64,000 nucleotides of DNA, taken from the IMG/VR virus record IMGVR_UViG_3300033120_000816. One strand, written 5' to 3'. Source of the DNA: a virus. Lineage: Duplodnaviria; Heunggongvirae; Uroviricota; Caudoviricetes. Positions 6,216-60,300 of the stretch are shown in pieces. The notes under the pieces were generated by a model, which was not told the DNA's origin, searched no databases, and was given only the letters and a program-made list of their open reading frames with translations. The position numbers and the translations under genes are program-made. The stretch's first letter is position 1. Each line of letters starts with the position of its first letter.

Positions 6216-6236
6216 CCAGTTTATTTTTTCATTTTT

Positions 6237-6300
6237 ATATTACACAAAAATTTTTATTTACTTTTTTGTTTGTTTTTCAAAGTAAATTGTATCTTTACAT
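6237..6300 (+). promoter_or_regulatory. Early promoter module copy 3 (ATATTACACAAAAA ... TTTGTTTG ... TATCTTTACA)
   Basis: Conserved with copies 1 and 2. TTTG at 6265-6268 lies ~20 nt upstream of TATCTTTA (6289-6296). The ATG at 6335 is 35 nt downstream. Confidence 0.55.
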
Positions 6301-9807: not shown

Positions 9808-10203
9808 ATGAAACGCAAACGCATATTACCACAACTATACTGGAAGCCCTGCATAGCTAAATTTGGTACGGTTATAGCCTACTTCACAGACGCAGACAGA
9901 GAGAAGGCTCATGCCGAACTAACAGCACGAGGTATCCGAAACGAAAAAATAGGTTTCACTAACCTTATTGGAGTGCCAGCAGGAGTGTATAGGAATAACA
10001 ACTTACACCTACTAACAGAAGGAGTAAGATCCGCATGGACCAACCTACACTATGTTAGAGATAGATGCCCACCACGAATAGATAAGACCCTGCCAGATTA
10101 CCAAGAGAGATTGTCCTGGTGTTTTGCCCCAGCAGGTCCGGAAGCGCCGATAGTCAAGTACGCAAACAAAAGGTTTCCTGAATACCCTAATCCGATTTAT
10201 TAG
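9808..10203 (+). CDS. hypothetical early protein (131 aa; MKRKRILPQLYW...)
   Basis: Internal ATG of track ORF 9709..10203, chosen to avoid overlap with 9345..9794. Confidence 0.45.
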   Translation: MKRKRILPQLYWKPCIAKFGTVIAYFTDADREKAHAELTARGIRNEKIGFTNLIGVPAGVYRNNNLHLLTEGVRSAWTNLHYVRDRCPPRIDKTLPDYQERLSWCFAPAGPEAPIVKYANKRFPEYPNPIY

Positions 10204-10214
10204 TATCTTTACAT
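10201..10214 (+). promoter_or_regulatory. Fourth copy of the -7-like box TAGTATCTTTACAT (short form, without the long upstream element)
   Basis: Same TATCTTTACA core as at 229-238, 1354-1363 and 6289-6298. Sits 20 nt upstream of the ATG at 10234. Confidence 0.35.
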
Positions 10215-10840: not shown

Positions 10841-10999
10841 ATGACAAACAAACGAATAGCCAGAAGAGAGCTGCATGTGTCATTCCATGGACATATGCTA
10901 TCCATTACAGCTCAAAAACAACATGGAGGACTGATTGGCAGGGTAGCAAGTATATTGGGTGGAATTGCCCGTAAATTTAAAAAAGCAATAGCAGTATGA
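10841..10999 (+). CDS. possible small basic protein (52 aa, MTNKRIARRELHVSFHGHMLSITAQKQHGGLIGRVASILGGIARKFKKAIAV), below the ORF-track cutoff
   Basis: ATG at 10841 sits 3 nt after the previous stop. Its TGA overlaps the next ATG (ATGA at 10996-10999), which suggests translational coupling. Confidence 0.3.
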   Translation: MTNKRIARRELHVSFHGHMLSITAQKQHGGLIGRVASILGGIARKFKKAIAV

Positions 11000-11196
11000 A
11001 TAATTCACATTCACTCTCAGATAATGGTACGCCACTTTTACTTACTCCTGAGTTTAAAAAAGATATGATAGCCCACTACAAGAGTAGATTAGATACTGTT
11101 GTTGCTCTTGGAAGAAAGTATAGTGATGAGTACTTCTTTACTCGTAATCAAATAAGAATGTGGGAGAAAACTTTTGGAGGTCAGGTAATGAAGTAG
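10996..11196 (+). CDS. hypothetical early protein (66 aa); last gene of the plus-strand block
   Basis: ORF in the array. Confidence 0.45.
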   Translation: MNNSHSLSDNGTPLLLTPEFKKDMIAHYKSRLDTVVALGRKYSDEYFFTRNQIRMWEKTFGGQVMK

Positions 11197-11202
11197 ATTA
11201 AA

Positions 11203-11242
11203 CTGGCATTGCGACGCTCCGTTCAGAGGTTAGGGCAATGAT
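11203..11242. repeat. 40-nt repeat copy A (CTGGCATTGCGACGCTCCGTTCAGAGGTTAGGGCAATGAT). Copy B is at 58983-59022.
   Basis: 34/40 identical to 58983-59022. The first 21 nt are identical. CATTGC/GCAATG forms an internal inverted repeat. Both copies are intergenic. Confidence 0.6.
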
Positions 11243-11264: not shown

Positions 11265-11295
11265 AAGCCCACCATACGGTTAATATGGTGGGCTT
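11265..11295. terminator. Bidirectional intrinsic terminator between the convergent early (+) and late (-) blocks
   Basis: AAGCCCACCATA cggttaa TATGGTGGGCTT is a perfect 12-bp stem. It is followed by aatttatgtt on the plus strand and preceded by an A-rich tract, which serves the minus strand. Confidence 0.55.
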
Positions 11296-11321
11296 AATTT
11301 ATGTTATCTTATCTTGTGTCT

Positions 11322-11700: not shown

Positions 11701-11886
11701 TTATATCTTTATCTTGCCTGCCAGATCCGCTTCCATGATTGTTCTTACCCTATCAGAGAAGTTTGTCCCCTTCTTTTTTGCAAAAGCGTGGAACTTTTCG
11801 TGTAGCTCTTGTGGCATTCTCAGGTTTACCAATATACCGGTGTATACTGGCTTGTTTCTTTTCTTTTGTGTTGTTGCACTCTCCAT
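11701..11886 (-). CDS. ribbon-helix-helix (Arc/MetJ/CopG-like) DNA-binding protein, 61 aa
   Basis: 'VNLRMPQELHEKFHAFAKKKGTNFSDRVRTIMEA' fits the RHH beta-strand / helix A / G-x-S/T turn / helix B pattern. Confidence 0.5.
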   Translation of the reverse strand: MESATTQKKRNKPVYTGILVNLRMPQELHEKFHAFAKKKGTNFSDRVRTIMEADLAGKIKI

Positions 11887-12751: not shown

Positions 12752-13396
12752 TTAACCCCATTGTTCTGCCATTGCTTTGGCGATGCCGGGAAATGTTTTG
12801 CTTCTGATTCTTCTGTTTTTTTGATTCCCACCTACGGTGCTGGTATCAGCAAACCACTTCGGCATTACGCAACCTGACTTCGCAACAAACATTTCACCTT
12901 TACCTACGTGTGTTTTTTTTGCAAATAAATCGTCCTGTTTGAAATGCTGTAACTGTGGTAAGCCATGTAGCCATAAGCAGGTGGTTTTCTGAAATTCATC
13001 ACCGAAATAGTAAGGTTGTATTATTTGTGGTTTGGGTAGTCTTGGATTACCATTCATTGCACCCATTGGGTTTTCCATGTACACTTTATCGCATACCGAT
13101 ATTGCTAACTCCCACAATGCAATAGTCCACTCTACGGCTTCTAGCCTCTTGTAATTCTTTTCTTTACCCGCTCCGTATGTTCTGTTACCGGATAGTGTCA
13201 TTGCAGTACATACCGGGTGAAGTCCTATAAAATCCCACTTCCTTGAATTTATGGCATTAATCACATCGCCTTTAATATGCCATTCAGGGTGTCCGCCTGA
13301 ACAATCTTGCAAGTCACAGCTATACGCCTCGTGACCTTGCGCTCGCATTGCCATACATACGGTTTGGCTCTCCTCGCATCCAATTAATACTTTCAT
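12752..13396 (-). CDS. C5-cytosine-methyltransferase-like core protein (214 aa) with PC and ENV-type motifs but no FxGxG motif and no target-recognition domain
   Basis: 'GLHPVCTAMTLSGNRTYGAGKEKNYKRLEAVEW' parallels C5-MTase motif IV (PCQxFSxAGxRxG...). 'KVYMENPMGA' parallels motif VI (ENV). 'FPGIAKAMAEQW' parallels motif X. The N-terminal 'MKVLIGCEESQ' replaces the FxGxGG loop. Confidence 0.5.
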   Translation of the reverse strand: MKVLIGCEESQTVCMAMRAQGHEAYSCDLQDCSGGHPEWHIKGDVINAINSRKWDFIGLHPVCTAMTLSGNRTYGAGKEKNYKRLEAVEWTIALWELAISVCDKVYMENPMGAMNGNPRLPKPQIIQPYYFGDEFQKTTCLWLHGLPQLQHFKQDDLFAKKTHVGKGEMFVAKSGCVMPKWFADTSTVGGNQKNRRIRSKTFPGIAKAMAEQWG

Positions 13397-13419: not shown

Positions 13420-15780
13420 TTACCTCAGTATCCCAGCAGCAGTCCTTATGTTGGTGTCCCCTAGTCTTGTCTTTCTGTCCTCCATGGTCTTTCTATATCC
13501 TAGTACGTAGTTTATTGCCAACAACCCCTCCATGTAGGCTACTGCAGCATCGTATTCGGTGGTGTCTTCTGCTTTGATTTGTGATAGCTGAGAGAGAACT
13601 GTAATGCTATCTAACTGGTCTATGTTGTCTACCTCTCCCTCCATGTTTGGGGCGGCCAAATGCGTCTTGGCTACGTCGAAGCATAGGTCTATGTTCTGGT
13701 TGTTCTTCTGTAGTGAGAAGTAATTTTGCTTGCCGTACTTCTGCCAGGGGACCAGCGCTTTTGTATCTGGGTCTACCATCAGCAAAAAATGACCTAGCCC
13801 TATTTCTATTAGCTTCTCGGACCATGTGGGCACGTTTGCCTCTAGTAACATAGGGCAATTGAGCAGCAGTATGATTTGTATAATCTCCTGTAGCGTATCC
13901 TTGGGGTTGTCTTCCCTGAATAGATACTCCATGAATAACCGCCTATTACTACATCTAGTACCCACCAGTGAGTCTAACTCAGAGTTGGGTAACACAAAGG
14001 CCATAATAGCGTTTAGTGACTTCGTATGAGTGTATTTCTTGCTCCTGTAGTTAGAAGGGTCCATGGATAGCAGGAACGGACTGTTGGGGTCGGGCATGAG
14101 TAATCCCGTCTTAGGGTGCACAAACCTTTTATTGACAAACTTATCCATGAACTGTGCAGGCAACCACTCGGGTCGGTACATTTTCCACTTACCTCCGGGC
14201 TTCTGAGCTCTTATGTCGGCATCGGTGGTGACATCCATCATTATCCTGCCTGGGAAGTCGTACTCTGTGCCTATATCCCTTTTCTTTGGGGCTTTCTCGT
14301 AGCGTAGTGAGAATTGCCTGTAGTTCCTTACGCCTATTGAGTATTCCTCCTTTATTTCGTTAATGCGTCTTGATATTCTCTCCAAGTCAAAGATGCTATC
14401 CTCAATAGCTCCCTCGTTCCATGGGTCTGCCTCACTCGTGGGGTACTGGCGCTTAGCAGTTTGGATAGCCGCAGTGGGGTTTTCTTTCTTTGCCGCCTTC
14501 TCTAGGTCAGAGTTGTATATCTTCCACACCATATCTTCAATGGGCTTCCCATACATATCACAGCCGCCAAATATACCCTCTTGAATTGTAAGAGTGTGGG
14601 CTATCAACCCAGATGCAGTCTGCCCATCTCGCTTGCCGGTATTCGGGTCTATTGGGATTGTCTTCAGCTTGCTATTATAGTATATCTCCTTTGACTGCCT
14701 GAATGATTTGTCTGTTTTCTCAGGGGAGTATGATAGCATAAGTATTGTCCCCTTACGACGTATAAAACCCTCCATTACGGTGGGCAATGTGGCCTCTAGC
14801 AATTCTTGTGGGTATGTACTCTCCTTTATTTTTGGGAACTCGTCAATAAGTGCCAGATAGTTAGTCATAGAGTCAAAAGAAGTCCTGCCCGTCGGGACGG
14901 TACATAGCCAGCTATTCAGGTACTCAACATCTACTTTGCGTTTCTTTTTGCTCAGTGGAGATCTGCTACTATTTGGCGGACCGAATTTTATCTCTCCCTC
15001 ATTCTCTTTGGCTCTGGATGGCAACATGATATCCGGCATCTTGCTTACCGCATACTTTATATAACCAAAGTTAGAGTCCTTTGCCAAGGCTTCTGTTATT
15101 GACATTATACGCACGTTAACCTGAGCTCGTGTGCTGGCTTCGTTGAGCGCTATCAAACTAAAAAACTGGGTGGCGCCAGTTTTCTTAGGTTTCATGAACA
15201 CACCACCTACTCCGTACTTTGTGCTTTTGGCTATCTCGTAGAAGTAGCCCATATCCCTCTGGAATTGGTAGTACTGCCCGTATTGGCTGCCTATCTCCAC
15301 GTCATTCGTAACACCAAGCATTGCCCCCCATTGCAGGGTAAAATAATGATGTCCAGTTATGTATGTTGGCTCTCCGTTGTTAAAGAACCAAACACCCTCT
15401 GCTCTTCTCCTAAATTCCCTTAGCTGTAAGCCTTCTGTTTCTCCGTCTTTTGGATTACCAAACAAGAGTATACTATCCTGCTTACTTAATGCAGTCAGCA
15501 ACCCAGCGTCATTGTATCTTGTGTACTCTGCGTCAAGCTCTACTCCGTCTCCTTCGCGATGCCACTCAAAAAATATCTTAGGAAAGTCTGTTTGCCTTCT
15601 CCAATACTGGTCTTTTGTAGGTAGGTCATGGAATAGAAACTCTTTTTTAGCTGGCATAGGTGGGGTAACAAAGGTATGCTCCCCCACTTGTATGCTCAGT
15701 GTCTTCCCTTGCTCGTATTCGTGTCGTACTTCTGCCATGCTATTTTTTAAGAATTTGCAACAGGGCTTTGTGTAATACAC
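13420..15780 (-). CDS. large terminase subunit-like protein (786 aa) - tentative
   Basis: Largest non-virion-type late ORF. It has a P-loop-like segment 'VFMKPKKTGATQFFSLI'. Placement and size fit TerL of crAss-like phages. The motif is non-canonical, so confidence is moderate. Confidence 0.4.
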   Translation of the reverse strand: MYYTKPCCKFLKNSMAEVRHEYEQGKTLSIQVGEHTFVTPPMPAKKEFLFHDLPTKDQYWRRQTDFPKIFFEWHREGDGVELDAEYTRYNDAGLLTALSKQDSILLFGNPKDGETEGLQLREFRRRAEGVWFFNNGEPTYITGHHYFTLQWGAMLGVTNDVEIGSQYGQYYQFQRDMGYFYEIAKSTKYGVGGVFMKPKKTGATQFFSLIALNEASTRAQVNVRIMSITEALAKDSNFGYIKYAVSKMPDIMLPSRAKENEGEIKFGPPNSSRSPLSKKKRKVDVEYLNSWLCTVPTGRTSFDSMTNYLALIDEFPKIKESTYPQELLEATLPTVMEGFIRRKGTILMLSYSPEKTDKSFRQSKEIYYNSKLKTIPIDPNTGKRDGQTASGLIAHTLTIQEGIFGGCDMYGKPIEDMVWKIYNSDLEKAAKKENPTAAIQTAKRQYPTSEADPWNEGAIEDSIFDLERISRRINEIKEEYSIGVRNYRQFSLRYEKAPKKRDIGTEYDFPGRIMMDVTTDADIRAQKPGGKWKMYRPEWLPAQFMDKFVNKRFVHPKTGLLMPDPNSPFLLSMDPSNYRSKKYTHTKSLNAIMAFVLPNSELDSLVGTRCSNRRLFMEYLFREDNPKDTLQEIIQIILLLNCPMLLEANVPTWSEKLIEIGLGHFLLMVDPDTKALVPWQKYGKQNYFSLQKNNQNIDLCFDVAKTHLAAPNMEGEVDNIDQLDSITVLSQLSQIKAEDTTEYDAAVAYMEGLLAINYVLGYRKTMEDRKTRLGDTNIRTAAGILR

Positions 15781-29600: not shown

Positions 29601-32536
29601 CCGCTTTTGGCATCGGTGTCGCTACGAACTTCGGTGTCGGACCCGACTTCTGCACGTTGGCTGTTGTCGGTGCTTTGCTTCCGCCCTTCATTACTTTCTG
29701 GGCTGCTGACGATGATTTTGTCTTCATTTTCTTTTGGTTTTTGTGAAGTATTATCTTCTGTTACAGTAGTAGGTTGTAAAGTTATATCTTTTTCTTCTGA
29801 AACAACCAAATTTTCTTTTGGTTTATTTTCGTCAATAACCACACCCTCTTCTGCAGGCTCAACAACTTCAACCTCTTCTTTTACCTCTGGAATAATTGGA
29901 GGTTCTTGCGTTGGTCTAACGTCTGGAATGCCGGCAGATTTCAAAATAGTTTCCCTCTCAGATATAAGTTCCGATATCTGCTTTTTTAGTGGAGCTTCTT
30001 GGGCTTTATCTATCTGGGTGTTTCTTGCTTTTGCTTCTCTTGAAAGTTGGTCTAATCTCCCTTGTAATGCTCGCTCCTGAAGCAGGGAAAATGTGTAGTT
30101 TTTTATCTGGTCTGGGGTAAGTAAATCTCCGTTATCATTAACGGGCGGAGTGTCCTCTTGTGCTGCTTTTATCTTAGCGATATCGCTTACGAGTTGGGAC
30201 GCCTGAGCTCCGGTCATTTTACCCTCTGCTTTCTGCTTGTATACCCAATCTGTATATTCTTTGGCATGAGTACCTACATCAAAGATTGCTGCCTTATTTA
30301 GGGGTGTTTTTTGCTTTGCTGCTCCATATCCTGACATTATAGACGGGATAAGGAAAGTAAGCGCTGTGTGCATTACATCTTCCCCTAAACCCTCTGTTGC
30401 TGCTAGGTCGTTCTCGGTGCCAGGCTTGGCTATGTTGTAAAGTTGATTCTGAGCGTACTTATTTGCTGCCGCTTGGGATATAACCAACCCCTCCATTTTA
30501 GCCATCTCAATGATGTGATTGGCGTACTTGTTAACAACTTTTGGAGTTAACAAACCTTTCATTCCGGCGTTCTTGATTTCATTCAAAAACTGCTCGGCTG
30601 TTTTCTTTGCTTCTCCAGATAATGTTATAGCATACTTACTTTGTGGGTGTGCGGAAAATATCAACGCCGACAACCCGCCAGATGTCATGCTATACAGTTG
30701 TCTTCTCCATTCGTCTTCGGGTTTGTCGCCTACTATGTCTTTTGCTTGCTGGTAGGCCCCGTTATACCCCTCAAATGCCATAAGACCAAAGTTGGCTAAC
30801 TTCTCAGATGTTGCACCACTTACCCCTATTTCTGCTATCGGTTCGGCTATCATTTTTGCGAACGGACCGAATGATTGTAGCATACCTATGGTGTTAGCCA
30901 TCGCCCCAGCCACGCCCCTTATGTTGTGTATGGTGTTTTGCTCGGTTGGCATATTGCCAGCAATCTTTGCAATAATCCCTCTTTGTTCCTGCCAGCCAGG
31001 AGGGAACATTTCATCTACGTTTTTACCTTGCGCAAAAGCAACTGTTCTTACCGCTCGCTCATACAATGCTGGGGCAAGAAAATTTCCAAACCCTTTTGCA
31101 AACTGCTGAATTAAACTTATCTCCTTTGGTATTGAGTCTTTTTCCTGTATCAACTCCTCGGCAACATCGTCATCTACACCTATTTCTTTGGCGTATTTTG
31201 TTATTTGCTCTGGAGTAATGTCGGGGCGCAGCGCAGAAGGGATGATAGCGTTGAGTATTTGATTACCCACCGTTTCGTCTCTATATTTCCTGTTCCCTAT
31301 GTCTTCCTTTGCCTTTTGCTTAATGAATTCTTTGTTCTGTGCTTTGATTTGCTTGCCTTCTACATCAGCGTATGGCGTGGCTTCTTTTTTTACGTTTTCG
31401 TTTACTGTGGATTCTAAGCCCTCATTGATTATATCCCTGCCTATTTGGTCGTACTTGTACTTTAACTCAGGATTGATAGGTCTACCTGCTTTCAAATTGG
31501 CAAGATCTTGCTGGGCTTGTTTGTTGCCAAACAATGCTTCTTTCTCAGCACCAAGCATAGACATGTTATACTTGCTGTTGGAGATTATCTGCTGTTGCTG
31601 TTGTTCGTAGCGCTTCTTGTTGTCGTTGAACTGAACCTTTAGCTTGTCTACTTCATCTGCCGCTCTTGGGTCAATTAAGTTGTCTTGATTGCGTGACGCC
31701 TGTGGATACTTTTTGAAGATAGCATCTACTTTTTGTCTGTATTGTTCCTCTTCTGCTTTTAATCTACCTTGTATCGCAGCTATTTGTGTTTGCGCCTGCT
31801 CAGGAGTGTACTTTTTTTGCTGGTACTCCCTATTAAATAACTGAAGGTCAATAACCTTTTCTGCTGCTGAATTGATTTCCTGTATTTTCTTTTCAATAAC
31901 TGGGCGTAGCTCTATTTCTGAGCCAGACTCGTAGATTGCAGCATTCTTTAGCTGGTCCCGTAATTTACCTATTTTGGTATTGCGGTACTGCGCTGTGTAG
32001 GTTGGGTCTCCGTTAGGGTTGGTAATCTTATTGATTGGGGGTACTGGGTCAATGAACTGCGTTTTCGGTGGCGGGATAAAGCCAGGTAGCGTCATTCCAT
32101 CTTCTGCATAGTCCTTGGCTAGTATATCAAATGCACTGGCTTGCTCCTGAGCAATTTGTTCGGGAGTGCGCGGCATTCTTCTTTCCAGTTTTTCGGAGTA
32201 GGGGAGCTTCTTTGGTGGTTGCTGTACAACTCCAATGGGCTTCATTTGGGTGACGTCAGGATTAAAGAACTCCGGCTCAGTTTTTAGCACTGGCACTGGA
32301 GGTCTTAAATATTGAGGTTGCTCTATTGTTATTGTGGGTTCTTCGGTTGGGGCTTCTTCTTGGCTTGCTGTAGATTGATCTACAATAACCTCTGCGTCGT
32401 CAACAACTGGAATATTGTCCCACACGGATTTAGTCTGAGGTTTTGCTATTTTCTCTGCTTCGGAGTCGTCAACAACTGGAATGTTATCCCATACGGATTT
32501 CTTTGCAGCTGTAGTGTCTTTGTTTTTATCTCCCAT
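26648..32536 (-). CDS. giant virion-associated protein (1962 aa), Lys/Glu-rich, low complexity, with N-terminal tandem repeats
   Basis: Uninterrupted 5.9-kb ORF. The N-terminus carries a duplicated 'KSVWDNIPVVDD(S/A)E' unit (~35-nt DNA repeats at 32395-32510). Long E/K/P/T-rich linkers are present. Confidence 0.8.
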   Translation of the reverse strand: MGDKNKDTTAAKKSVWDNIPVVDDSEAEKIAKPQTKSVWDNIPVVDDAEVIVDQSTASQEEAPTEEPTITIEQPQYLRPPVPVLKTEPEFFNPDVTQMKPIGVVQQPPKKLPYSEKLERRMPRTPEQIAQEQASAFDILAKDYAEDGMTLPGFIPPPKTQFIDPVPPINKITNPNGDPTYTAQYRNTKIGKLRDQLKNAAIYESGSEIELRPVIEKKIQEINSAAEKVIDLQLFNREYQQKKYTPEQAQTQIAAIQGRLKAEEEQYRQKVDAIFKKYPQASRNQDNLIDPRAADEVDKLKVQFNDNKKRYEQQQQQIISNSKYNMSMLGAEKEALFGNKQAQQDLANLKAGRPINPELKYKYDQIGRDIINEGLESTVNENVKKEATPYADVEGKQIKAQNKEFIKQKAKEDIGNRKYRDETVGNQILNAIIPSALRPDITPEQITKYAKEIGVDDDVAEELIQEKDSIPKEISLIQQFAKGFGNFLAPALYERAVRTVAFAQGKNVDEMFPPGWQEQRGIIAKIAGNMPTEQNTIHNIRGVAGAMANTIGMLQSFGPFAKMIAEPIAEIGVSGATSEKLANFGLMAFEGYNGAYQQAKDIVGDKPEDEWRRQLYSMTSGGLSALIFSAHPQSKYAITLSGEAKKTAEQFLNEIKNAGMKGLLTPKVVNKYANHIIEMAKMEGLVISQAAANKYAQNQLYNIAKPGTENDLAATEGLGEDVMHTALTFLIPSIMSGYGAAKQKTPLNKAAIFDVGTHAKEYTDWVYKQKAEGKMTGAQASQLVSDIAKIKAAQEDTPPVNDNGDLLTPDQIKNYTFSLLQERALQGRLDQLSREAKARNTQIDKAQEAPLKKQISELISERETILKSAGIPDVRPTQEPPIIPEVKEEVEVVEPAEEGVVIDENKPKENLVVSEEKDITLQPTTVTEDNTSQKPKENEDKIIVSSPESNEGRKQSTDNSQRAEVGSDTEVRSDTDAKSGQERQVLEPQKETEEPQRAPVNGEPAEVVSENKPKKSRRMFVEEEVVVPTPEQPVVEVKAEEITPKTPEGEVKVEEVTPEPKTPVTEKGLQSLQAKLDRELANPEPKTPAAQKAKKQRIENLQKQIENASTRLKEQQQKRDTEGSIQEPEGAKQARGEAKTPSPEGSDSVQRGKKGKQKVDNTPFGEAKSKANKRPKPKNEYQRLKQIATSGDPSSFYEGVLQAIVDGIRFRYDDIRTEYGIKHSDMGQYFRRIAKQGLSVDHFVERFLKSDDNLYNPTGFVDDAIDARREFFEIWQRYGNDERAALQELLRIQGKNEKGEEILPDFVQGESKKAEGGPTREELWAKLTPEQRNRYIESDAEMDLQDLVEDVVDAVEMTDAEAQIILDYAETLTEEDGNVNLTKPDLFDRDYQDAYNKLEALGKGKGKLLEFMISGEIADRYKEYDKIFEQYGIEKISDTPEGGESVSGKGEGVSENGKPSSKGEGSEQTKDSPAPEKAIEAKYDKVANKIEESLEAYLKRSAEQNKGMLPSAPGFSTRVGDEIVKAIAKATIALVRAGKNVHVAIYRAIEQVKANDPEGAKGLEYQDIDTLNKILSIVPERPKVLPELSKTNREIAAEWVSDIRTGELTYGQAVVEVMQAEGLKDATKENILNYMNFRLYKEAAHKIPHPEPKEGNMVAEMDMDESQASKFLGEKTTEDIYGEEGVADEMGEDKVALRLESIMNSARNTASAYKEKFGGLATKWGAKMFSDIKDVPNDPKRQATALVGLQAELQSERIRNEMDLKKLSSDLANNPTPENRQKILEAIEATTAEQQRLRALTAQVQNYWKKLASTSSDVLNIRRGDRMMRDAMMGDYYAERILNEQQIREMRAVEKALTADIMENYKNHPQYKAEMSIKKEKARSQARARREKKKQEQAEAKEGVVEKAKEKVKEVAEAITGNRKKEAEKRKEAARNDFPLNDKGERMTPKEFLEFIKKLKKPC

Positions 32537-38960: not shown

Positions 38961-41387
38961 TTATCTTTGAACAATGTAGTTCCATACGTATTGCGTACTG
39001 TCAGATAGCGCAGTAACAATAGCCCCAGCAATTATGCTTACAGAGTTTGCGCCAACAATCACGGTGCTTTGAGCTGCAAGCGCTGGCACGTTTTGTGGCA
39101 CAAAAACAGGAACAGACCAAAAAGATCCAGAGGGGTCGGGTGTGTTGTATATTAATGTGAACAAGTCGCCAGTTGTGCACCCGGTACCTGTAGTAAGCCT
39201 AACCCTACCCTTGTTGTCGTCCGATCCGGTATCAATACTCAATGTAGCCCCAACACCTGCCGCTGCCGCTATGGTAAACGTTGGCGCTACGCGGTTTCCT
39301 ATCATAGCAAAAGTACCACCCCTTCCAATTGACAGTTGATACACCCTATTAGCAAGTATACCATCCTCTGATTTAACCGAACTTAAAAAAGCAGTTCCAG
39401 AAGAACGCAAACTTAATGTGCTAGAGCTGCCAGTTGCCGACAATGAAGCAAAAGCAAGGGTGCTGTTTGCGGCAATCAAGGAACCCGCAGACATTGATGC
39501 GTATTGACCCACTATGCTTCCACTTATAATAGTGTTTGTGGTGGTGTTGCCTGCGTCAGTTACTTGCTGAAGATTGAGGTCTAAGTTGCTATACGCCAAT
39601 ACAGAGTATACATTTGGGAGTATACACTGAACTATTACAGACTGCATTGGTCTATTCAGTATAATTGAAGAAGCGTTATCAATTATACCAGAACCGTCCA
39701 CTTGTATAGTTACCGTTCTACCTGCAGGAACTGCTCCGTATAGCTTTATGCAATACACCTGCTTTACTATTGACGGCAGCGTAATCACTCTGCTTGCTGC
39801 CGACACGTCACATATTATCTCAAAATCTGTTGCTAGTGCAGTATATGCAGCTGTAGCTTGCGTGACAGCAAAACCAATACCGGTTCCATACATGGCATTT
39901 GTGGTAGTGTTCCCTGCCGTTGTTACGGCTTGTAGGTTTGTTGTCCCTGGAAGAACCCAAGATAGATTACCGGAACCATCGTTTACTAAGGTTGTGCCAG
40001 CGCTACCCTGATTTTGCGGAGCAACTATAGCATAAGTGTTTTGCATTGGGTGTGCTTGTACATAAAATGTACCATACCCTATAGATCTTACCCAAACCCT
40101 TCCTGAAACATCTGTAGGGGAACTAAGTCCTATCCCAGCAACAACACCACCCACACCTAGTTTTTCTATAAGTATTTGGTCGTCTCCTATTGTCGTGTGT
40201 CTAGTTGACACATCTCCCACAATGATATCTCTGGTTGTTGTGTTGCCGTTATCTGTTACTTGCTGCAAAGTCCCAGAGGTTGCGCCCGGCACCGAAAGAT
40301 AAAGCGTGTAGTTGTTGCCCACATTGGTTACGGTGGCAGTGATAGCCCCCGTTGTCACTGGAGTAATTGTGATATCGCCGTCTGTTACTCCAATGGCGTT
40401 AATCCCTCCACCTACTCCGCAGTTGCAAGTGAAGCCGCCTATTTTCTTTATTTCCTCTATAAGAGCAGGAACATCTATTCCGCAAAATGGTTGATTGATA
40501 CCTATAAAGCACTGACCCAACAAGGTGTTAATACGGAGTAGCTTGTCTTTAACCTCTGTGTTTTCTACCGTACCACACTTGGTTGGGAGTAGCTTGTATA
40601 GCTTGTCTATTTCACACACAAGTTGACACAGGTCTATGTTACAGTATACGGCAAATACCTTGTCAAACTTGTACTGTATTTTTATTGACGCTCCGTCACC
40701 CATGTCGTAGGTGGCAAAGGTGCTCAAGTTAAGTTGATACCCTTTAGCCGAGTAGCCTACAGGAAATATTACAGTAGCCCTATCCTCTACCGTTATAACT
40801 TCTGGGTCGTTACCTTCAGCATCCATTGGATATGCTAACTTCCAAGTAGATGATGATGCAGAACCTAATCTGTTTTGATAGGTGTAATTGGTCTTATCGG
40901 TTGCGTATATCTTTGCAATATTACACTTGGTTTCTGCAAACGCTTCCGCTACACCAAAGTTTCCTCTTGTCTTCTCCGTGCTGCCATTTGGTCTACATAT
41001 AGTTGTAGCCTTGGTTATTGAGTAGATGTTGTTGGCAGAGTCTTTAACGTACAGTGTTGTTCTGTATGGCAAACTGCACGAGAATACTATTTGACCATAC
41101 GGTGGAACTCCGAATGGTGTTGGCCAAGCCCCAGCAGGGAGCGTGAGTGTTGTCCAGTTTGCTGAAGTTACATCGGGAGTACCGACTGAACCTTGGTGAA
41201 TATAAGTCCCGTTAGGGTCTGTAACCTCATACCACCATGTACAGTTGGCGAGATTTGTTGTGCCAGATGGATTGCCAATTGAAGTGTTAGTCAATACTAT
41301 GCTTGGCACACCTCCACTTATATCGTAGAGGACGCTAAAATTGAGGTTGGTTATATCCGGAGAGCCCGTTATTGGTAGACCTGGCAT
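38961..41387 (-). CDS. tail fibre / tail spike-like protein (808 aa)
   Basis: Gly/Thr/Ser/Asn-rich beta-rich composition with repeated 'NTTT' / 'QQVTDAGNTTTN' segments, typical of fibre or spike proteins. Confidence 0.65.
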   Translation of the reverse strand: MPGLPITGSPDITNLNFSVLYDISGGVPSIVLTNTSIGNPSGTTNLANCTWWYEVTDPNGTYIHQGSVGTPDVTSANWTTLTLPAGAWPTPFGVPPYGQIVFSCSLPYRTTLYVKDSANNIYSITKATTICRPNGSTEKTRGNFGVAEAFAETKCNIAKIYATDKTNYTYQNRLGSASSSTWKLAYPMDAEGNDPEVITVEDRATVIFPVGYSAKGYQLNLSTFATYDMGDGASIKIQYKFDKVFAVYCNIDLCQLVCEIDKLYKLLPTKCGTVENTEVKDKLLRINTLLGQCFIGINQPFCGIDVPALIEEIKKIGGFTCNCGVGGGINAIGVTDGDITITPVTTGAITATVTNVGNNYTLYLSVPGATSGTLQQVTDNGNTTTRDIIVGDVSTRHTTIGDDQILIEKLGVGGVVAGIGLSSPTDVSGRVWVRSIGYGTFYVQAHPMQNTYAIVAPQNQGSAGTTLVNDGSGNLSWVLPGTTNLQAVTTAGNTTTNAMYGTGIGFAVTQATAAYTALATDFEIICDVSAASRVITLPSIVKQVYCIKLYGAVPAGRTVTIQVDGSGIIDNASSIILNRPMQSVIVQCILPNVYSVLAYSNLDLNLQQVTDAGNTTTNTIISGSIVGQYASMSAGSLIAANSTLAFASLSATGSSSTLSLRSSGTAFLSSVKSEDGILANRVYQLSIGRGGTFAMIGNRVAPTFTIAAAAGVGATLSIDTGSDDNKGRVRLTTGTGCTTGDLFTLIYNTPDPSGSFWSVPVFVPQNVPALAAQSTVIVGANSVSIIAGAIVTALSDSTQYVWNYIVQR

Positions 41388-54976: not shown

Positions 54977-55066
54977 GGGCACACAACCGGATTTGAACCT
55001 GTGACCTCAGTCCATCTGGAGTTAACCATGGGGAACCTGCGCTCTAACCAACTGAGCTATGTGCAC
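54977..55066 (-). tRNA. tRNA gene with an extended anticodon/variable region (isotype undetermined)
   Basis: Reverse complement: GTGCACA-TA-GCTC-AGTTGGTTA-GAGC ... CAGG-TTCAAAT-CCGG-TGTGTGC. That is a 7-bp acceptor (two G-U pairs), a canonical D-arm and a T-loop. The middle is ~16 nt longer than a class I tRNA, with a possible variable-arm hairpin ACTCCAG-ATGGA-CTGAGGT. Confidence 0.5.
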
Positions 55067-55308
55067 CTTGTTTTTTATCAGGGATTTCTACCCTATCGTG
55101 GAGTCGGCGAAATTCGAATTCGCGTCCAAACAACTTTCTCCTCGCAAACGTTACGCTCATGCTCTTGTTTTATCGCTGCTGGCTTCAGCTATTCGATTGT
55201 GAATCGACAACTATTGAAGTTTTGCTAGGGGATTTATGAAGAGGTCTTCCACTCTCCCTCATGACGGCTTATCCCATGCCTACACGTCTATACCGTAGTG
55301 TTTTTGGT

Positions 55309-55524
55309 TTAGGCTGCTGTTGCCATAGCAAACTCGCCATCGAAAATACTCTCAAGAAGAGCATCTACATCACCGTCGAAAGAAACTGTAGTTTCTGCGT
55401 TTATTGTTTGAATACATTGTTTAGGTAATAACTGTATTGAAAAGTGATTTTCCGACTCGAACGGCCTACTTGCTGGCTTGTTGTACATCGTACCCCCTGT
55501 CTCCCTTTTTAACACTGTTAACAC
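55309..55524 (-). CDS. hypothetical protein (71 aa)
   Basis: Isolated short ORF between the tRNA island and the gene at 55709..56272. Confidence 0.35.
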   Translation of the reverse strand: MLTVLKRETGGTMYNKPASRPFESENHFSIQLLPKQCIQTINAETTVSFDGDVDALLESIFDGEFAMATAA

Positions 55525-55708
55525 TGTTACATTACTTTAGGTGCTATATCCTTGCACCTGAGCGCGTTTACTACTTTACTCATTGCTGTCAAAACCGTTC
55601 GACCCCAATTGTGATGTAAAGATACACTTTGTTTTGATAAAACAAAAAAAGCACCAAAATTATTTTTTTGGTGCTTTTCAAATATTTAGATCTATTGTTC
55701 TTTTTCTT

Positions 55709-56272
55709 TTAGCTTATTACTTCCCAGTCCTCAGCAAGCATATCCATTGTGGATGGTTTCCAGCCAGCTTCTATTGTCCCCTGCGCTGACTTAAATGCAA
55801 AGTATGCACCGTAAGGAACTAAGGCGTTTTCTCCAAATTCTTTTTTAGCCACGTCCGTTTGGGCTGGGTAGCTGTTTGCTGGTACATAGTAAAGAAACAT
55901 ACCTTTGCCATTCCACCCTGGGCGAGTTAGCTTTTCTCCGTTCTTGAGAAGGCGTATTGCGTCACCAAATGTCAAGTAGGTTTTGCTACTTCCTTCTTCT
56001 TCAGACACCTCTTCGTATGTAGCAGCAAATATATCGGGCTTGCAGGGGTAAAACTCGCCTTTTATGCCTTTAATTATGTAGTCACCAATAGATGCCTCCA
56101 TTACCCCCTCTAAGGTTGGTATATATAACCTTGCATCTTCTATTGTGCCACCAATAGGTACGGGCTTCATTTCCAACTCTTTGCCGATAAATCTTTCTAT
56201 CCTGATTGTACTGATTGCTCGGCAATCCCATTGCATTGCTTCAATCACTACTGGTTTTTTTCTGTACTGCAT
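55709..56272 (-). CDS. 187-aa protein carrying an RxGWNGKGMF motif, tentatively DUF2829-like (the family that includes the anti-Thoeris sponge Tad2), with an internal duplication
   Basis: 'FGDAIRLLKNGEKLTRPGWNGKGMFLYYVPA' matches the R-x-G-W-N-G core I recall for DUF2829. The N-terminal half 'RKKPVVIEAMQW...' looks like a degenerate second copy. Confidence 0.55.
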   Translation of the reverse strand: MQYRKKPVVIEAMQWDCRAISTIRIERFIGKELEMKPVPIGGTIEDARLYIPTLEGVMEASIGDYIIKGIKGEFYPCKPDIFAATYEEVSEEEGSSKTYLTFGDAIRLLKNGEKLTRPGWNGKGMFLYYVPANSYPAQTDVAKKEFGENALVPYGAYFAFKSAQGTIEAGWKPSTMDMLAEDWEVIS

Positions 56273-56360: not shown

Positions 56361-56574
56361 TTGCAGCACTCTACTTTTTTTACCGTTTCTGGCGCGTCTT
56401 ACATGTATCCGAATTGATTGCTTTCGGGCAATCTCCTATCAGTAACGGATGGTTACTGCGCTCCTCTCTATGGTTTGTGCGGAATGTAGGGATTTGAACC
56501 CAGTATGCAGCCGTTATCTGCTATTCCAGTTTGTGTTGTTCTTATGCGTCTCCTCCCATGAGGTAAAATTAGTT

Positions 56575-56644
56575 GCGGTAACAGGACTCGAACCTGCGAC
56601 CTATAGGTTATGAGCCTACCGAGCTAACCACTGCTCTATACCGC
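56575..56644 (-). tRNA. tRNA-Met (anticodon CAT; elongator Met or Ile2-type)
   Basis: Reverse complement: GCGGTAT-A-GAGC-AGTGGTTA-GCTC-G-GTAGG-CTCATAA-CCTAT-AGGTC-GCAGG-TTCGAGT-CCTGT-TACCGC. All arms pair, U33 is present, the anticodon is CAT. CCA is not encoded. Confidence 0.8.
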
Positions 56645-56690
56645 GATACAAATGTAGGAAGTGTTTTTGAAATAAACAAAATCAAAAAAA
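56645..56690 (-). promoter_or_regulatory. Bacteroidota-type promoter for tRNA-Met: -33 TTTG ... 20 nt ... -7 TACATTTG immediately upstream of the tRNA 5' end
   Basis: Minus-strand sequence is ATTTTGtttatttcaaaaacacttccTACATTTGtatc-GCGG(tRNA). This is an exact match to the TAnnTTTG consensus with canonical spacing. Confidence 0.5.
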
Positions 56691-58386: not shown

Positions 58387-58938
58387 CTATCGTTTGGGTT
58401 CTTCAAAAAGCACATAAGGAATTGTGGTATTACTCCATTTATTACCGTATATTCTTTTCGCCTCAGATACTACCAATTCTATAAATTCTTTCCATTGTGC
58501 AGGTGGTATTGTTTGACATCCTTCACTTGATGTAGTGGTTACGCCGCCTCGGTGAATGTTGATGCCGAAAAAGCCTGTGTCGTCACCTACTCCGTCGCGA
58601 GCTACAGTTACTTTACCAGCCCATTGAGCTAATGCCTGGTAGCCTTTATGTGCTCCTATTCTATGAGCGTAGTATGTGTCTGGTTTTAGCATCGCCAACC
58701 CCTTTTTGAATTGCGCGCTGGGGTCAGTATTGCCATTGAAGCTTTGGAAGACTTTGGGTGACACAACAAATATTGCATCGTCGTAGATTGCTCTGTCGTT
58801 CTTGCCTTTTACTCCCATGCTGTCAGTGTAGTAGCCTCTTACGCCTACTATATACAAGGGAAATTTAGGGTCTACTGGCTTGGGTATTTGAGAGAGTAGT
58901 TCTTCTCTTTTTCTTTGTGGTCTGCTGTTTGGTAGCAT
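58387..58938 (-). CDS. L,D-transpeptidase (YkuD)-fold-like protein (183 aa), possible cell-wall hydrolase
   Basis: 'GINIHRGGVTTTSSEGCQTI' resembles the YkuD catalytic His ... Ser-x-Gly-Cys motif. Confidence 0.45.
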   Translation of the reverse strand: MLPNSRPQRKREELLSQIPKPVDPKFPLYIVGVRGYYTDSMGVKGKNDRAIYDDAIFVVSPKVFQSFNGNTDPSAQFKKGLAMLKPDTYYAHRIGAHKGYQALAQWAGKVTVARDGVGDDTGFFGINIHRGGVTTTSSEGCQTIPPAQWKEFIELVVSEAKRIYGNKWSNTTIPYVLFEEPKR

Positions 58939-58982
58939 AAATGTTTATTACTTGTTGGTCAAAGTTAGGGAATTCTATTTGG

Positions 58983-59022
58983 CTGGCATTGCGACGCTCC
59001 GTTTAGGGTTCGGGGCAATGAT
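58983..59022. repeat. 40-nt repeat copy B (CTGGCATTGCGACGCTCCGTTTAGGGTTCGGGGCAATGAT)
   Basis: 34/40 identical to 11203-11242, in the same orientation. It is also intergenic, 4 nt downstream of the stop of 59027..59356. Confidence 0.6.
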
Positions 59023-59026
59023 GCGG

Positions 59027-59356
59027 CTAGCTCATTAGCTTCATCTTCCACTTCTTCATAAACCTAATAGGCTTATCATCAAAGTCGTAGTAGTAGCTGC
59101 CGGTTATAAGCCACTTTATAGGCATGGTGATAGCAAACAAAATACTTACTACAAAAAATAGTGGCGCAGTGAGTCTCCATAGTGGCGATGCTTTCTTTTC
59201 TTCTATCTTGTAAAGTATCCTTTTGGTCTCAAGATAATCCCTTATAGCAGTACGCTGAACATAAGACAGGCTTTCTATGTCGTTCTTTTTCAAAAACACA
59301 TCTATGCCGTTAATCACGCTATCGGCAGATCCGGTAAAGTAGTTGTATAGTTTCAA
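59027..59356 (-). CDS. membrane protein (109 aa)
   Basis: Hydrophobic segment LTAPLFFVVSILFAITMPIKWLITG. Confidence 0.45.
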   Translation of the reverse strand: MKLYNYFTGSADSVINGIDVFLKKNDIESLSYVQRTAIRDYLETKRILYKIEEKKASPLWRLTAPLFFVVSILFAITMPIKWLITGSYYYDFDDKPIRFMKKWKMKLMS

Positions 59357-59369
59357 TTTCTGTTGCTAT

Positions 59370-59810
59370 TTAGCTATTCACTGAATATATAAGCAAATTC
59401 AATCGCTCCAAAACATCTCCACCTGTGTGGCCGTCCCACTCAGGCGCCTTCTCTAGCTCTTCGGCAAAGTAGCACTTATCCCACTCTGACATTGGTAGGT
59501 GGTAGGTAATTTGCTGACCTTTGGATTTATATATACCCAAGATAAACCAACCTTCTACCTCGTGCCCACTTGAGTGCGCTTTGGATTTCCATACTGGGCT
59601 ATCTCCTTTACAGTACTCCCCGTTGCGACTTGGGTACGCTATTTGCTTTGCCAACAACATGTACAGTGCTATCCGGTGGTTATACAACTCTCCGAATGTA
59701 TGGTAGCCATCGCTTATGTCGTCAGTGGCTATCTGACCTGCGTTTGCCCTCTCTTTTATGAGGGTGTTGATTTGTTGTGCGTTCATTTTATTGTGTGTTT
59801 TGTTCAGCAA
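59370..59810 (-). CDS. hypothetical protein (146 aa) with SDGYHTFGELYNHR motif
   Basis: ORF. I do not recognise the motif. Confidence 0.5.
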   Translation of the reverse strand: MLNKTHNKMNAQQINTLIKERANAGQIATDDISDGYHTFGELYNHRIALYMLLAKQIAYPSRNGEYCKGDSPVWKSKAHSSGHEVEGWFILGIYKSKGQQITYHLPMSEWDKCYFAEELEKAPEWDGHTGGDVLERLNLLIYSVNS

Positions 59811-59886: not shown

Positions 59887-60300
59887 CTAAGGATTGTCGA
59901 TACCATTATCTACTTTAGAATACTCAAAAACTAAATGATTGGCTATGTGGTTAAACTCTAGGGTATTTTTATCCTCACCTGTAAGAGTTTCATACATTCT
60001 ATTCGGAACAATATTAGCCAATGCGTGCAAAAAAGCTTTTAAATTGTCATCATTTTCAAAGTCTGATTGCTTTATGTAATGGTCAGAATTTTCGTCAAAT
60101 ACAGTTGCTACTGCCATCCCTAATTTTACTGCATACTCAAATTGTTTTTCCATTTTTAGTAAGTTTTTATCCGCTACCTGCGGAATGTAAATGTAAATAA
60201 ATATTCCTGAACAATCCTTGCTTTTGTGTAAATATTTTTTACCTTTGATGCTGATTAAAAATAAATACACACAACATGATTCATTCTGAGTTTGATTCAA
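59887..60300 (-). CDS. hypothetical protein (137 aa); last gene of the minus block
   Basis: ORF divergent from the chaperonin cassette. Confidence 0.45.
   Translation of the reverse strand: MNQTQNESCCVYLFLISIKGKKYLHKSKDCSGIFIYIYIPQVADKNLLKMEKQFEYAVKLGMAVATVFDENSDHYIKQSDFENDDNLKAFLHALANIVPNRMYETLTGEDKNTLEFNHIANHLVFEYSKVDNGIDNP

Follow-up and report, generated by a model that had tools for sequence, protein, structure and literature searches.

The c4 RNA of phages P1 and P7 and the CI RNA of phage P4 are trans-acting antisense immunity RNAs. In T-even phages, the polymorphic internal-protein genes are said to start with a capsid-targeting sequence, which Repoila and co-workers reportedly described in EMBO J in 1994. 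Junction sequences at which accessory genes are swapped have been documented mainly in T4-type and lambdoid phages. The T4-type phages have promoter-early stem-loop (PeSL) cassettes, which consist of a strong sigma-70 promoter and a terminator hairpin and occur as direct repeats numbering in the dozens (Arbiol et al. 2010, PMC2839356; Comeau et al. 2014, PMC4122927). The stoperators of the Cluster A mycobacteriophages (L5 gp71) are 20–30 sites of 13 bp, and their orientation follows transcription (PMC9283540). Here we describe a 40-nt element that is present twice in a 64,000-nt stretch of a Caudoviricetes genome (IMG/VR record IMGVR_UViG_3300033120_000816). This whole stretch is called the window below, and ~22 kb of the genome lie outside it. 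Sequence comparison indicates that both 40-mers are conserved short versions of a gene-junction module common to several uncultured Bacteroidota-type phages. In behaviour, the closest known system appears to be the PeSL cassette, and the module would be its analogue, of a different build, in a group of uncultured phages with Bacteroidota-type promoters from which no such cassette is yet described.

Results

Two copies of a 40-nt element and their genomic setting

The two copies, A and B (Table 1), match at 35 of 40 positions and are identical over their first 21 and last 10 nt. The shared 21-mer occurs exactly twice in the window when up to 3 mismatches are allowed on both strands, and it was not obtained in any of 100 shuffles. 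A profile search, with the profile made from all known copies, found no third copy in the window. Beyond the 40-mer the flanks of A and B show no significant similarity, so the repeated unit is sharp-edged, and an extended homology of the two flanks was rejected on the same ground. The G+C content of the element is ~55–58%, as against ~40% for the window. Each copy was found at the same place in independent assemblies, namely SRR32380196, SRR12487029, ERR14173536, SRR35795376 and SRR25230051 in Logan, and 3300050213 and 3300042888 from JGI. Thus, the 40-nt copies are genuine and conserved, and they are neither a product of chance nor an assembly artefact. The first-pass annotation of this DNA, made from the letters alone, had placed both copies correctly and on the same strand and had called the match unlikely by chance, with which the count of the 21-mer and the recurrence in relatives (see below) agree; its identity of 34 out of 40 became 35 on recounting, and the assembly artefact for which it had proposed a check was not found.

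Genes are encoded on the plus strand from 1 to 11.2 kb and beyond 60.3 kb, and on the minus strand from 11.3 to ~60.3 kb. Copy A is located in the 3' untranslated stretch after the last plus-strand (early-type) gene and upstream of the convergent terminator, as had been annotated, except that the gap to this gene is one of 6 nt instead of 7 nt; in the related contig L102 it is 0 nt. Two relatives, L102 and L104, have a terminator at this position too; the stem of the L104 one differs in sequence. There is no promoter adjoining copy A. The distance of 4 nt between copy B and the stop of the 109-aa gene was confirmed. Beside copy B, on the side of the 183-aa lysozyme-like gene, lies a perfect Bacteroidota-type -7 box, and eight genes of the window have such a box 18–38 nt before their ATG. 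The box beside B is kept in L100, L101 and L109, and the gene downstream of it in L109 is a different one. Judged from the position of this box, the core of B (the invariant 15 nt described below) would be centred ~41 nt upstream of the predicted start site and cover about -34 to -48.

Table 1. Location of the 40-nt copies, their cores and the neighbouring features in the window
Feature	Position	Strand	Remark
66-aa gene	10996..11196	+	last gene of the plus-strand block; A starts 6 nt past its stop
Copy A of the 40-nt element	11203..11242	+	CTGGCATTGCGACGCTCCGTTCAGAGGTTAGGGCAATGAT
Core in copy A	11209..11223	+	TTGCGACGCTCCGTT; 15 nt, invariant
Bidirectional intrinsic terminator	11265..11296		plus- and minus-strand blocks converge here; 22 nt beyond A
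183-aa lysozyme-like gene	58387..58938	-	ATG 44 nt from copy B
Bacteroidota-type -7 promoter box	58960..58967	-	TAACTTTG; 15 nt from B, 21 nt before the 183-aa ATG
Copy B of the 40-nt element	58983..59022	+	CTGGCATTGCGACGCTCCGTTTAGGGTTCGGGGCAATGAT
Core in copy B	58989..59003	+	TTGCGACGCTCCGTT; 15 nt, invariant
109-aa gene	59027..59356	-	stop 4 nt from copy B

Copy A lies at the left end of the minus-strand block, and copy B ~0.8–1.3 kb inside its right end. After B come ~4 kb of accessory genes, two tRNA genes and a tmRNA gene, and only then the structural genes. The earlier description of the two copies as bracketing the late block is therefore approximate: it fits A, which is at the end of the block, and does not fit B, which is inside. 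Both copies are found on the 3' side of minus-strand accessory genes, which accounts for their common orientation without any need for a long-range function. The 47.8-kb spacing and the bracketing could well be incidental and without special meaning, a view that we hold tentatively. As for the proteins, the 786-aa protein encoded 2.2 kb from A is the terminase large subunit. In a Pfam search with the nine largest proteins of the window, eight gave no convincing domain. The 746-aa protein has methyltransferase matches in Pfam just below the threshold, and the 61-aa RHH protein (11701..11886) has weak Arc/ParG-type matches.

Conservation of a 15-nt core in related phages

The first-pass annotation had proposed BLASTN of the 40-mer; a BLAST comparison of both regions with the phage collection gave nothing useful, and relatives carrying the motif were recovered by look-ups through the neighbouring proteins. 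Both sites recur across five related phage lineages, in which the flanking DNA is 66–85% identical to that of the window; the motif is thus not absent from relatives, an absence which had been named beforehand as an argument for chance. Among near-identical strains, copy A is present in L097 and L098 and copy B in L099. In a lineage with 82–89% amino acid identity in the neighbouring proteins, copy A is found in L102 and L103 (partial) and copy B in L100 and L101. Moreover, L104 from a 70% lineage has copy A, and the mosaic relative L109 (Cpn60 at 62%) has copy B. None of the 15 columns of the core varies in these copies, as against 19 of the 26 non-core columns with at least 22 changes (7 distinct versions; Poisson P about 3e-6). 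The 3' half of the element drifts freely, indels included. When the copies are read in the reverse frame, no change is present at the four third-codon positions of the RSVA codons, which argues for a constraint at the nucleotide rather than the protein level. The alignment thus indicates that the 15-nt core is held constant at the nucleotide level in the non-coding copies of the window clade. In addition, one substitution, A36G, is shared by A (L102, L103) and B (L100, L101) of one lineage, in which the copies are identical at 40 out of 40 positions. The degenerate form of the core is TTGCNACGCTCNNTT. There is no dyad, direct-repeat or tandem symmetry in the core, and RHH dimers usually read dyad- or tandem-symmetric sites. 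A literature search on the core sequence yielded nothing relevant.

In the distant relative L108, no element is present at the convergent junction, and in another one, L137 (TerL 47.5% identical in amino acids), the core is located 56 nt upstream of a small early-type-block gene. No element was found in 80 IMG/VR loci encoding ~50%-identical relatives of the 183-aa lysozyme-like protein; the contigs L105–L107, which were also reached via this protein, are unrelated phages or prophages, in which the element is absent. Scans of IMG/VR, genome_contigs and metagenome_contigs with the exact 19-mer GGCATTGCGACGCTCCGTT, a query that contained six bases variable in L109, gave chance hits only, and by these scans the window itself is in none of the three.

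The genes around copy B differ among the relatives. The window, L099 and L109 have the 109-aa gene; L100 and L101 lack it, and there the WDGH gene directly adjoins the element. Beyond the promoter adjoining B, L109 has an extra gene encoding 94 aa. As compared across these contigs, synteny breaks exactly at the edge of copy B, where the gene content changes.

A wider module family in low-GC contigs

The scan of IMG/VR with the exact 15-mer returned 66 stretches; it retrieved exact core matches only, so the apparent invariance of the core outside the window clade is inflated. Most of these stretches are unrelated contexts and were counted as chance, namely high-GC coding regions, a tRNA-Met gene and one terminator family, where the 15-mer is the 3' arm of the terminator hairpin. 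A set of low-GC (36–46%) contigs has 2–3 copies per contig, variants with 1–3 core mismatches counted, and several of these contigs share the next eight bases, CAGGGTTC, with the window clade. Copy B has 22 of 23 nt in common with the module in five contigs; the match covers all 23 in L101/L102 and extends to 25 in L100, which has 25 identical nt with L112. Chance matches of a 23-mer expected in IMG/VR are far below 1, as estimated from the 66 stretches for the 15-mer. By this comparison, the window copies are homologous to the module of the low-GC contigs. Nothing else is shared between the window and these contigs, and no DNA-binding gene common to the window and the other-phage fragments was found in loci of only a few kb each.

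In the low-GC contigs, the core is the centre of a module of ~85 nt, which could be aligned across 23 copies and which is located at the boundaries of small accessory genes in either orientation, even within single contigs. The antisense copies are translated and form the last 20–35 codons (…LNSEQNPERSVAT(D/M)..SS.NAD…) of proteins unrelated to one another, among them a DNA methyltransferase, a P-loop protein and a Cys-rich protein. That this tail is coding is indicated by synonymous variation at conserved Leu, Asn, Val and Thr codons and by in-frame indels, and the PHROG profiles of the tailed proteins stop where the tail starts. The core in these phages varies in a codon-like manner (Val as GTC, GTG or GTA), so that the protein must account for at least part of the constraint there. 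Most sense copies are non-coding, and in six contigs the end of the core is 24–25 nt from the ATG that follows. Four contigs have a single gene with a sense copy upstream and an antisense copy at its 3' end, and several contig fragments contain antisense copies only. Between L112 and each of L113, L114, L115 and L118, only junction segments of 21–124 nt are shared (78–100% identical), among them both module types and a small hairpin; the intervening genes are unrelated. Furthermore, the upstream neighbour at one locus differs by contig and is a 157-aa gene, a methyltransferase gene, a 117-aa gene or a tRNA.

Reading frames and secondary structure of the window copies

Read in the reverse frame, copy A ends in …LTSERSVAMPV and copy B in …APNPKRSVAMPAK, each followed by a stop, and these ends (...SERSVAMPV and ...NPKRSVAMPAK, respectively) resemble the tail ...NPERSVATMP.... 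However, the tail frame in the window is open for 11–12 codons only, lacks a start codon and is shifted by +1 from the 109-aa ORF. In L109 it contains an internal TGA. In L100 and L101 the tail frame is in frame with the WDGH gene but behind its stop codon, which is consistent with descent from a translated tail. A translation of the window copies as a tail via frameshift or read-through is excluded by stops in the relevant frames, and the long ORFs in the standard code argue against stop-codon recoding. From these frames, the copies of the window clade are read as non-coding, since they do not form an in-frame C-terminus.

The inverted repeat CATTGC...GCAATG, with a spacer of 22 nt, is present in both window copies. 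Changes in the 3' arm abolish the outer stem in L104, and changes in the 5' arm weaken it in L109. There are no compensatory changes, that is, no pair has changed on both sides, and 500 of 500 shuffles do as well. The folding energies are ordinary, with z-scores from -2.4 to +0.4 for the copies on either strand. Nothing relevant was found in Rfam, in which the whole window was searched at the gathering threshold and both sites at E<=10. Judged by this pattern, the hairpin is incidental and the conserved part is the asymmetric 15-nt core, which spans the 5' arm and the supposed loop, so that CATTGC...GCAATG should not be annotated as an RNA element.

Some known types of element were considered and rejected. 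The element is not an intrinsic terminator, as its 6-bp stem encloses a 22-nt spacer and is not followed by a T run; a terminator scan found only the separate hairpin listed in Table 1 near A and nothing at B. The reverse complement of the core occurs in a tRNA-Met of L164/L170, not in the tRNA-Met of the window, and there is no host match, so a tRNA fragment or attP was rejected and the match treated as chance. A sigma-54 promoter (TGGCA...) fails because the spacing deviates by one and L109 lacks TGGCA, and an ECF-type -35/-10 pair on the minus strand fails because its 11-nt spacing is too short. The template or variable repeat of a DGR was rejected, since it would call for adenine-specific differences, a reverse transcriptase and a longer repeat, none of which is present. 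A boxA/nut-like site is suggested by GCTCCGTTTAACAA, the form that some copies take in other phages; this form is lacking in the window copies, and such a site could not act from the antisense copies. A promoter for a crAss-type virion RNA polymerase was rejected since the large proteins have no DFDxD motif.

Discussion

We assume, with a probability of about 0.4, that the two copies contain a nucleotide-level recognition core, probably DNA that is bound by a protein, within a junction or linker cassette where gene cassettes are exchanged. The core would be a sequence-specific recognition site acting as double-stranded DNA, and its putative binder, most likely a phage-encoded protein, would control or insulate transcription at the junction. 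At B, the core would cover the -34 to -48 region of the conserved promoter, and at A it would sit against the convergent terminator. A core sequence common to the phage pool could moreover be an identity patch, where co-infecting phages recombine and thereby swap the neighbouring cassettes. The reading as double-stranded DNA with a protein is favoured because either orientation works, the size is that of a protein site, and B overlaps the upstream half of the conserved promoter. A role of a transcription factor at A is a conjecture, as A has no adjoining promoter, and we infer the link to recombination from the comparison of a few contig fragments. A recognition or binding role had been thought more likely in the first-pass annotation as well, and it stands as the likeliest class of explanation; the invariance of the core and its presence in five lineages make the element look non-random and functional. 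The structured RNA and the recombination or inversion site that had been offered beside it fared worse, as set out below.

The main rival is an RNA pairing in trans, in which a plus-strand transcript with A would be complementary to a minus-strand transcript with B. A belongs to the 3' UTR of the last early-type operon, and B would be transcribed by read-through from the WDGH/109-aa operon; the duplex could be cut by RNase III or couple the two operons through antisense regulation. The same pairing could take place in the other phages between sense copies in 5' leaders and antisense copies at 3' ends, the two kinds of copy being often found there in one operon. This geometry can be read directly from the sequence, with a complementarity of 21 bp perfect plus 10 bp in the window and of 40 bp in the JGI lineage. 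In the prediction of duplexes between the A 3' UTR and minus-strand windows, the B region also comes out best by far, which is trivial given the identity of the two copies. The constraint at the nucleotide level, wobble positions included, the same substitution in A and B of one lineage, and the four other contigs with a gene between a sense leader copy and an antisense 3' copy would all suit such pairing. However, the conserved -7 box predicts a start downstream of B, and only read-through RNA would carry B, which moreover lies beyond the usual antisense window before the next ATG, at 44 nt. In the other phages, the copies of the same genome differ by 1–3 core bases and the partners show no matching changes, and several fragments have antisense copies only. 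We consider pairing in trans unlikely, and the relics, the strand-specific DNA site, the recombinase site and the structured RNA discussed below less likely than this. More doubtful than trans pairing is a bifunctional junction cassette, of a kind undescribed for Bacteroidota phages and with the element as its minimal form, which would unite a tail-coding strand, a nucleic-acid core and a crossover point. In this reading, a C-terminal tag (…LNSEQNPERSVAT…SSN.AD…) has been grafted on unrelated early proteins (methyltransferase, P-loop ATPase, zinc-finger-like), where it is perhaps a targeting or degradation signal; the sense leader copies and antisense tail copies could pair as RNA or be bound as DNA and so coordinate expression; and the core would be the crossover for cassette exchange across distantly related phages.

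The copies could also be functionless relics, that is, decaying C-terminal tail modules from horizontally acquired genes, which are kept alike by conversion or re-import. The peptides of the reverse frame resemble the ...NPERSVATMP... tail, the tail frame in L100/L101 continues past the WDGH stop as expected of a recent nonsense mutation, and the 3' half of the element drifts freely with indels. But the absence of any change in the 15 core positions, with at least 22 in the other 26, at two loci in five lineages with 15–34% flanking divergence, would be hard to obtain without selection, and conversion would need to happen often between 40-nt patches separated by 47.8 kb and yet affect 15 nt only. 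We hold such relics to be improbable. Site-specific nicks are known in T5 and phiKMV-like phages, and a strand-specific DNA processing site, such as a site-specific nick, a priming site or a packaging signal, would fit the location of A and B on the same strand whatever the local transcription, the long and asymmetric conserved core, and the gene for the terminase large subunit at 2.2 kb from A. A shared orientation of two copies is, however, a 50% event, single contigs of other phages have the module in both orientations, neither a nickase nor an HNH gene was found, and nothing ties the element to the genome ends, all of which makes this function very unlikely. Sites of a site-specific recombinase, for excision, inversion or resolution, seem still more remote. 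Two near-identical sites with a common core would fit, and so would the inverted pairs around single genes in other phages, which look like invertible segments. As had been pointed out with the first-pass annotation, though, recombination between the direct copies would delete essential genes, and indeed the 47.8 kb to be excised include all structural genes and the terminase, so that the product would be inviable. No match to an integrase, invertase or resolvase family was found in the scan of ~40 window proteins (~22 kb of the genome being outside the window), and known crossover sites are dyads around a central spacer, which the core is not. The least probable, in our view, is a cis-acting structured RNA, formed by the CATTGC...GCAATG hairpin or mimicking a host RNA, for instance as a solitary CRISPR repeat. 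The stem is there in both window copies, A36G and A6G yield G-U pairs on the plus strand, and a length of ~36–40 nt falls within the size range of CRISPR repeats. Against it stand the stem broken in L104 and L109, the lack of two-sided pair changes beyond what shuffles give, the ordinary folding z-scores and the lack of an Rfam family; furthermore, A and B are on opposite sense strands of their respective transcripts. For the mimic, no array but only single chance hits were found with the 19-mer in 185,579 species genomes and the metagenome collection, in which the host may be absent.

Taken alone, the two 40-mers are modest, and it is the family behind them that deserves a dedicated survey. 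The 15-nt core is conserved across phages that share no other DNA, and the module is a common C-terminal tail in some of them. If the core is a recognition site for a protein or an RNA, it would give a handle on early-gene regulation in a phage group that can barely be annotated, and it provides a concrete sequence for tracing the gene flow between such phages in metagenomes.

The comparison with the described systems shows where the present module would stand. Like the RNAs of P1/P7 and P4, short repeats within one genome could give pairing RNAs that control a distant or downstream operon, but theirs are in one transcript that is processed to a defined structured small RNA, whereas pairing here is a geometric possibility between two convergent operons. 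With the tag of the T-even internal proteins, the module has in common a short coding tag on unrelated small genes, a polymorphic locus and a DNA sequence that doubles as homology for replacement; the T-even tag is N-terminal, always translated and serves capsid targeting with protease cleavage, whereas the one here is C-terminal and untranslated in the window clade. The stoperators are likewise asymmetric, non-palindromic and of similar size, they lie in short intergenic gaps and at a promoter, they are strongly conserved between drifting flanks, and they are bound as DNA by a phage protein, which is putative here. However, there are only two sites here, A being sense and B antisense to the local transcription, and neither a repressor nor an integrase, as a sign of lysogeny, was seen in the window, so that repressor sites of the stoperator type were rejected on copy number, the orientation rule and the cognate repressor. 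The PeSL cassettes differ in construction: the 40-mer here has no consensus promoter or terminator, the -7 box and the terminator lying outside the repeated unit, its conserved part is a 15-nt GC-rich asymmetric core, both orientations are used, one strand is a protein tail in some phages, and the window has two copies only. In behaviour the likeness to PeSLs is close. In both, short conserved sequences lie between small non-essential genes, related phages share the junctions while the genes between them are inserted, deleted or replaced, as was also found here, and recombination between the copies is the proposed driver.

Gene content around the two copies of the repeat

The accessory block adjoining copy B of the 40-nt repeat has one gene for a Tad2-like (anti-Thoeris) protein and another whose product contains a WDGH domain, and thus the genes immediately to the left of this copy are probably early or anti-defence genes rather than late ones. 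The tmRNA gene was predicted by ARAGORN and agrees with Rfam, in which its 55.3 bits exceed the gathering score of 47; its predicted tag peptide is AETTVSFDGDVDALLESIFDGEFAMATAA, and parts of this region share 92% identity with L109, a related contig that has copy B.

At the convergent terminator, five small genes lie between the gene for the terminase large subunit (phrog_6681) and the terminator, reaching down to 11322 on the minus strand. One encodes a DNA methyltransferase, and the other four encode proteins of 144 aa, 121 aa, 61 aa (an RHH protein) and 119 aa. Since the terminase gene itself is the last one before the terminator in the more distant relative L108, the five genes look like added cargo. 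In addition, L102 and L104, two of the relatives with copy A, have a Dcm-type DNA methylase (PF00145) inserted between homologues of the 66-aa and 52-aa genes of the window, whereas this methylase is not present in the window. In the early-type block on the plus strand, the promoter-like motifs ATATTACACAAA... and ...TTGTATCTTTACAT (repeat families D9, D14 and D16) occur in three copies each and are likely early promoters; they bear no relation to the 40-mer.

Coordinates of the features in the window and in other contigs
Feature	Position	Strand	Remark
Promoter-like motifs	175-238, 1282-1335, 6220-6300, 10194-10214	+	Repeated
DNA methyltransferase	12752-13396	-
Terminase large subunit	13420-15780	-
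41-nt repeat, D13	32391-32500		69-nt spacing
Three repeat copies, D4	39538-40265	-	~340-nt spacing; in 808-aa ORF 38961-41387
tRNA, 89 nt	54978-55066	-	Second tRNA gene; Rfam alone
tmRNA	55096-55606	-	ARAGORN and Rfam
Tad2-like protein	55709-56272	-
tRNA-Met	56572-56645	-
WDGH-domain protein	59370-59810	-
594-aa Cpn10 protein	60276-62060	+
Cpn60 (GroEL)	62111-63715	+	Follows Cpn10 gene
PF00145 methylase	L102 5685-7016; L104 847-1518
Phage tRNA-Met (CAT), 85 nt	L164 10104-10188; L170 10875-10959		Long variable region
Genes with LNSEQNPERSVAT tail	L112 2227-2700; L113 1627-2259, 2619-2936; L114 806-1159; L118 13966-14361; L155 12526-13212, 13428-13856; L168 12956-13264

The 15-mer core and a common protein tail in other contigs

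In a family of IMG/VR contigs with 44-52% GC (L119, L123, L132, L135, L136, L139, L141, L142, L145, L146, L148, L150, L156, L159, L163, L165, L166, L172 and L175), the 15-mer forms the 3' arm of a strong hairpin that resembles a terminator, GGGGCGTGCAA-ARA-TTGCGACGCTCC, after which comes GTTTTG or GTTCTG. The left arm GGGGCGTGCAA, for its part, closely resembles the core's reverse complement. We treated these occurrences as a match that arose by chance in a single family. In two contigs, the core's reverse complement also lies within a phage tRNA-Met, where it spans the 3' strand of the anticodon stem and the variable region, which is probably a coincidence; it is not found in the window's own tRNA-Met.

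Furthermore, in low-GC phage contigs of IMG/VR, small proteins that are unrelated to each other have a common tail at the C-terminus, …LNSEQNPERSVAT(D/M)..SS.NAD(KQIKQNPFGG). The synonymous variation of its codons shows that the tail is genuinely translated, and it may be a C-terminal tag common to unrelated proteins.

Internal repeats and chaperonin genes

The D4 repeats lie within one large ORF, suggesting tandem protein domains. Moreover, the gene upstream of Cpn60 encodes a protein with a Cpn10 (GroES) domain at each end, and this Cpn10-Cpn60 pair is kept in all four related contigs that have copy B (L099, L100, L101 and L109); a GroES with several domains is uncommon.
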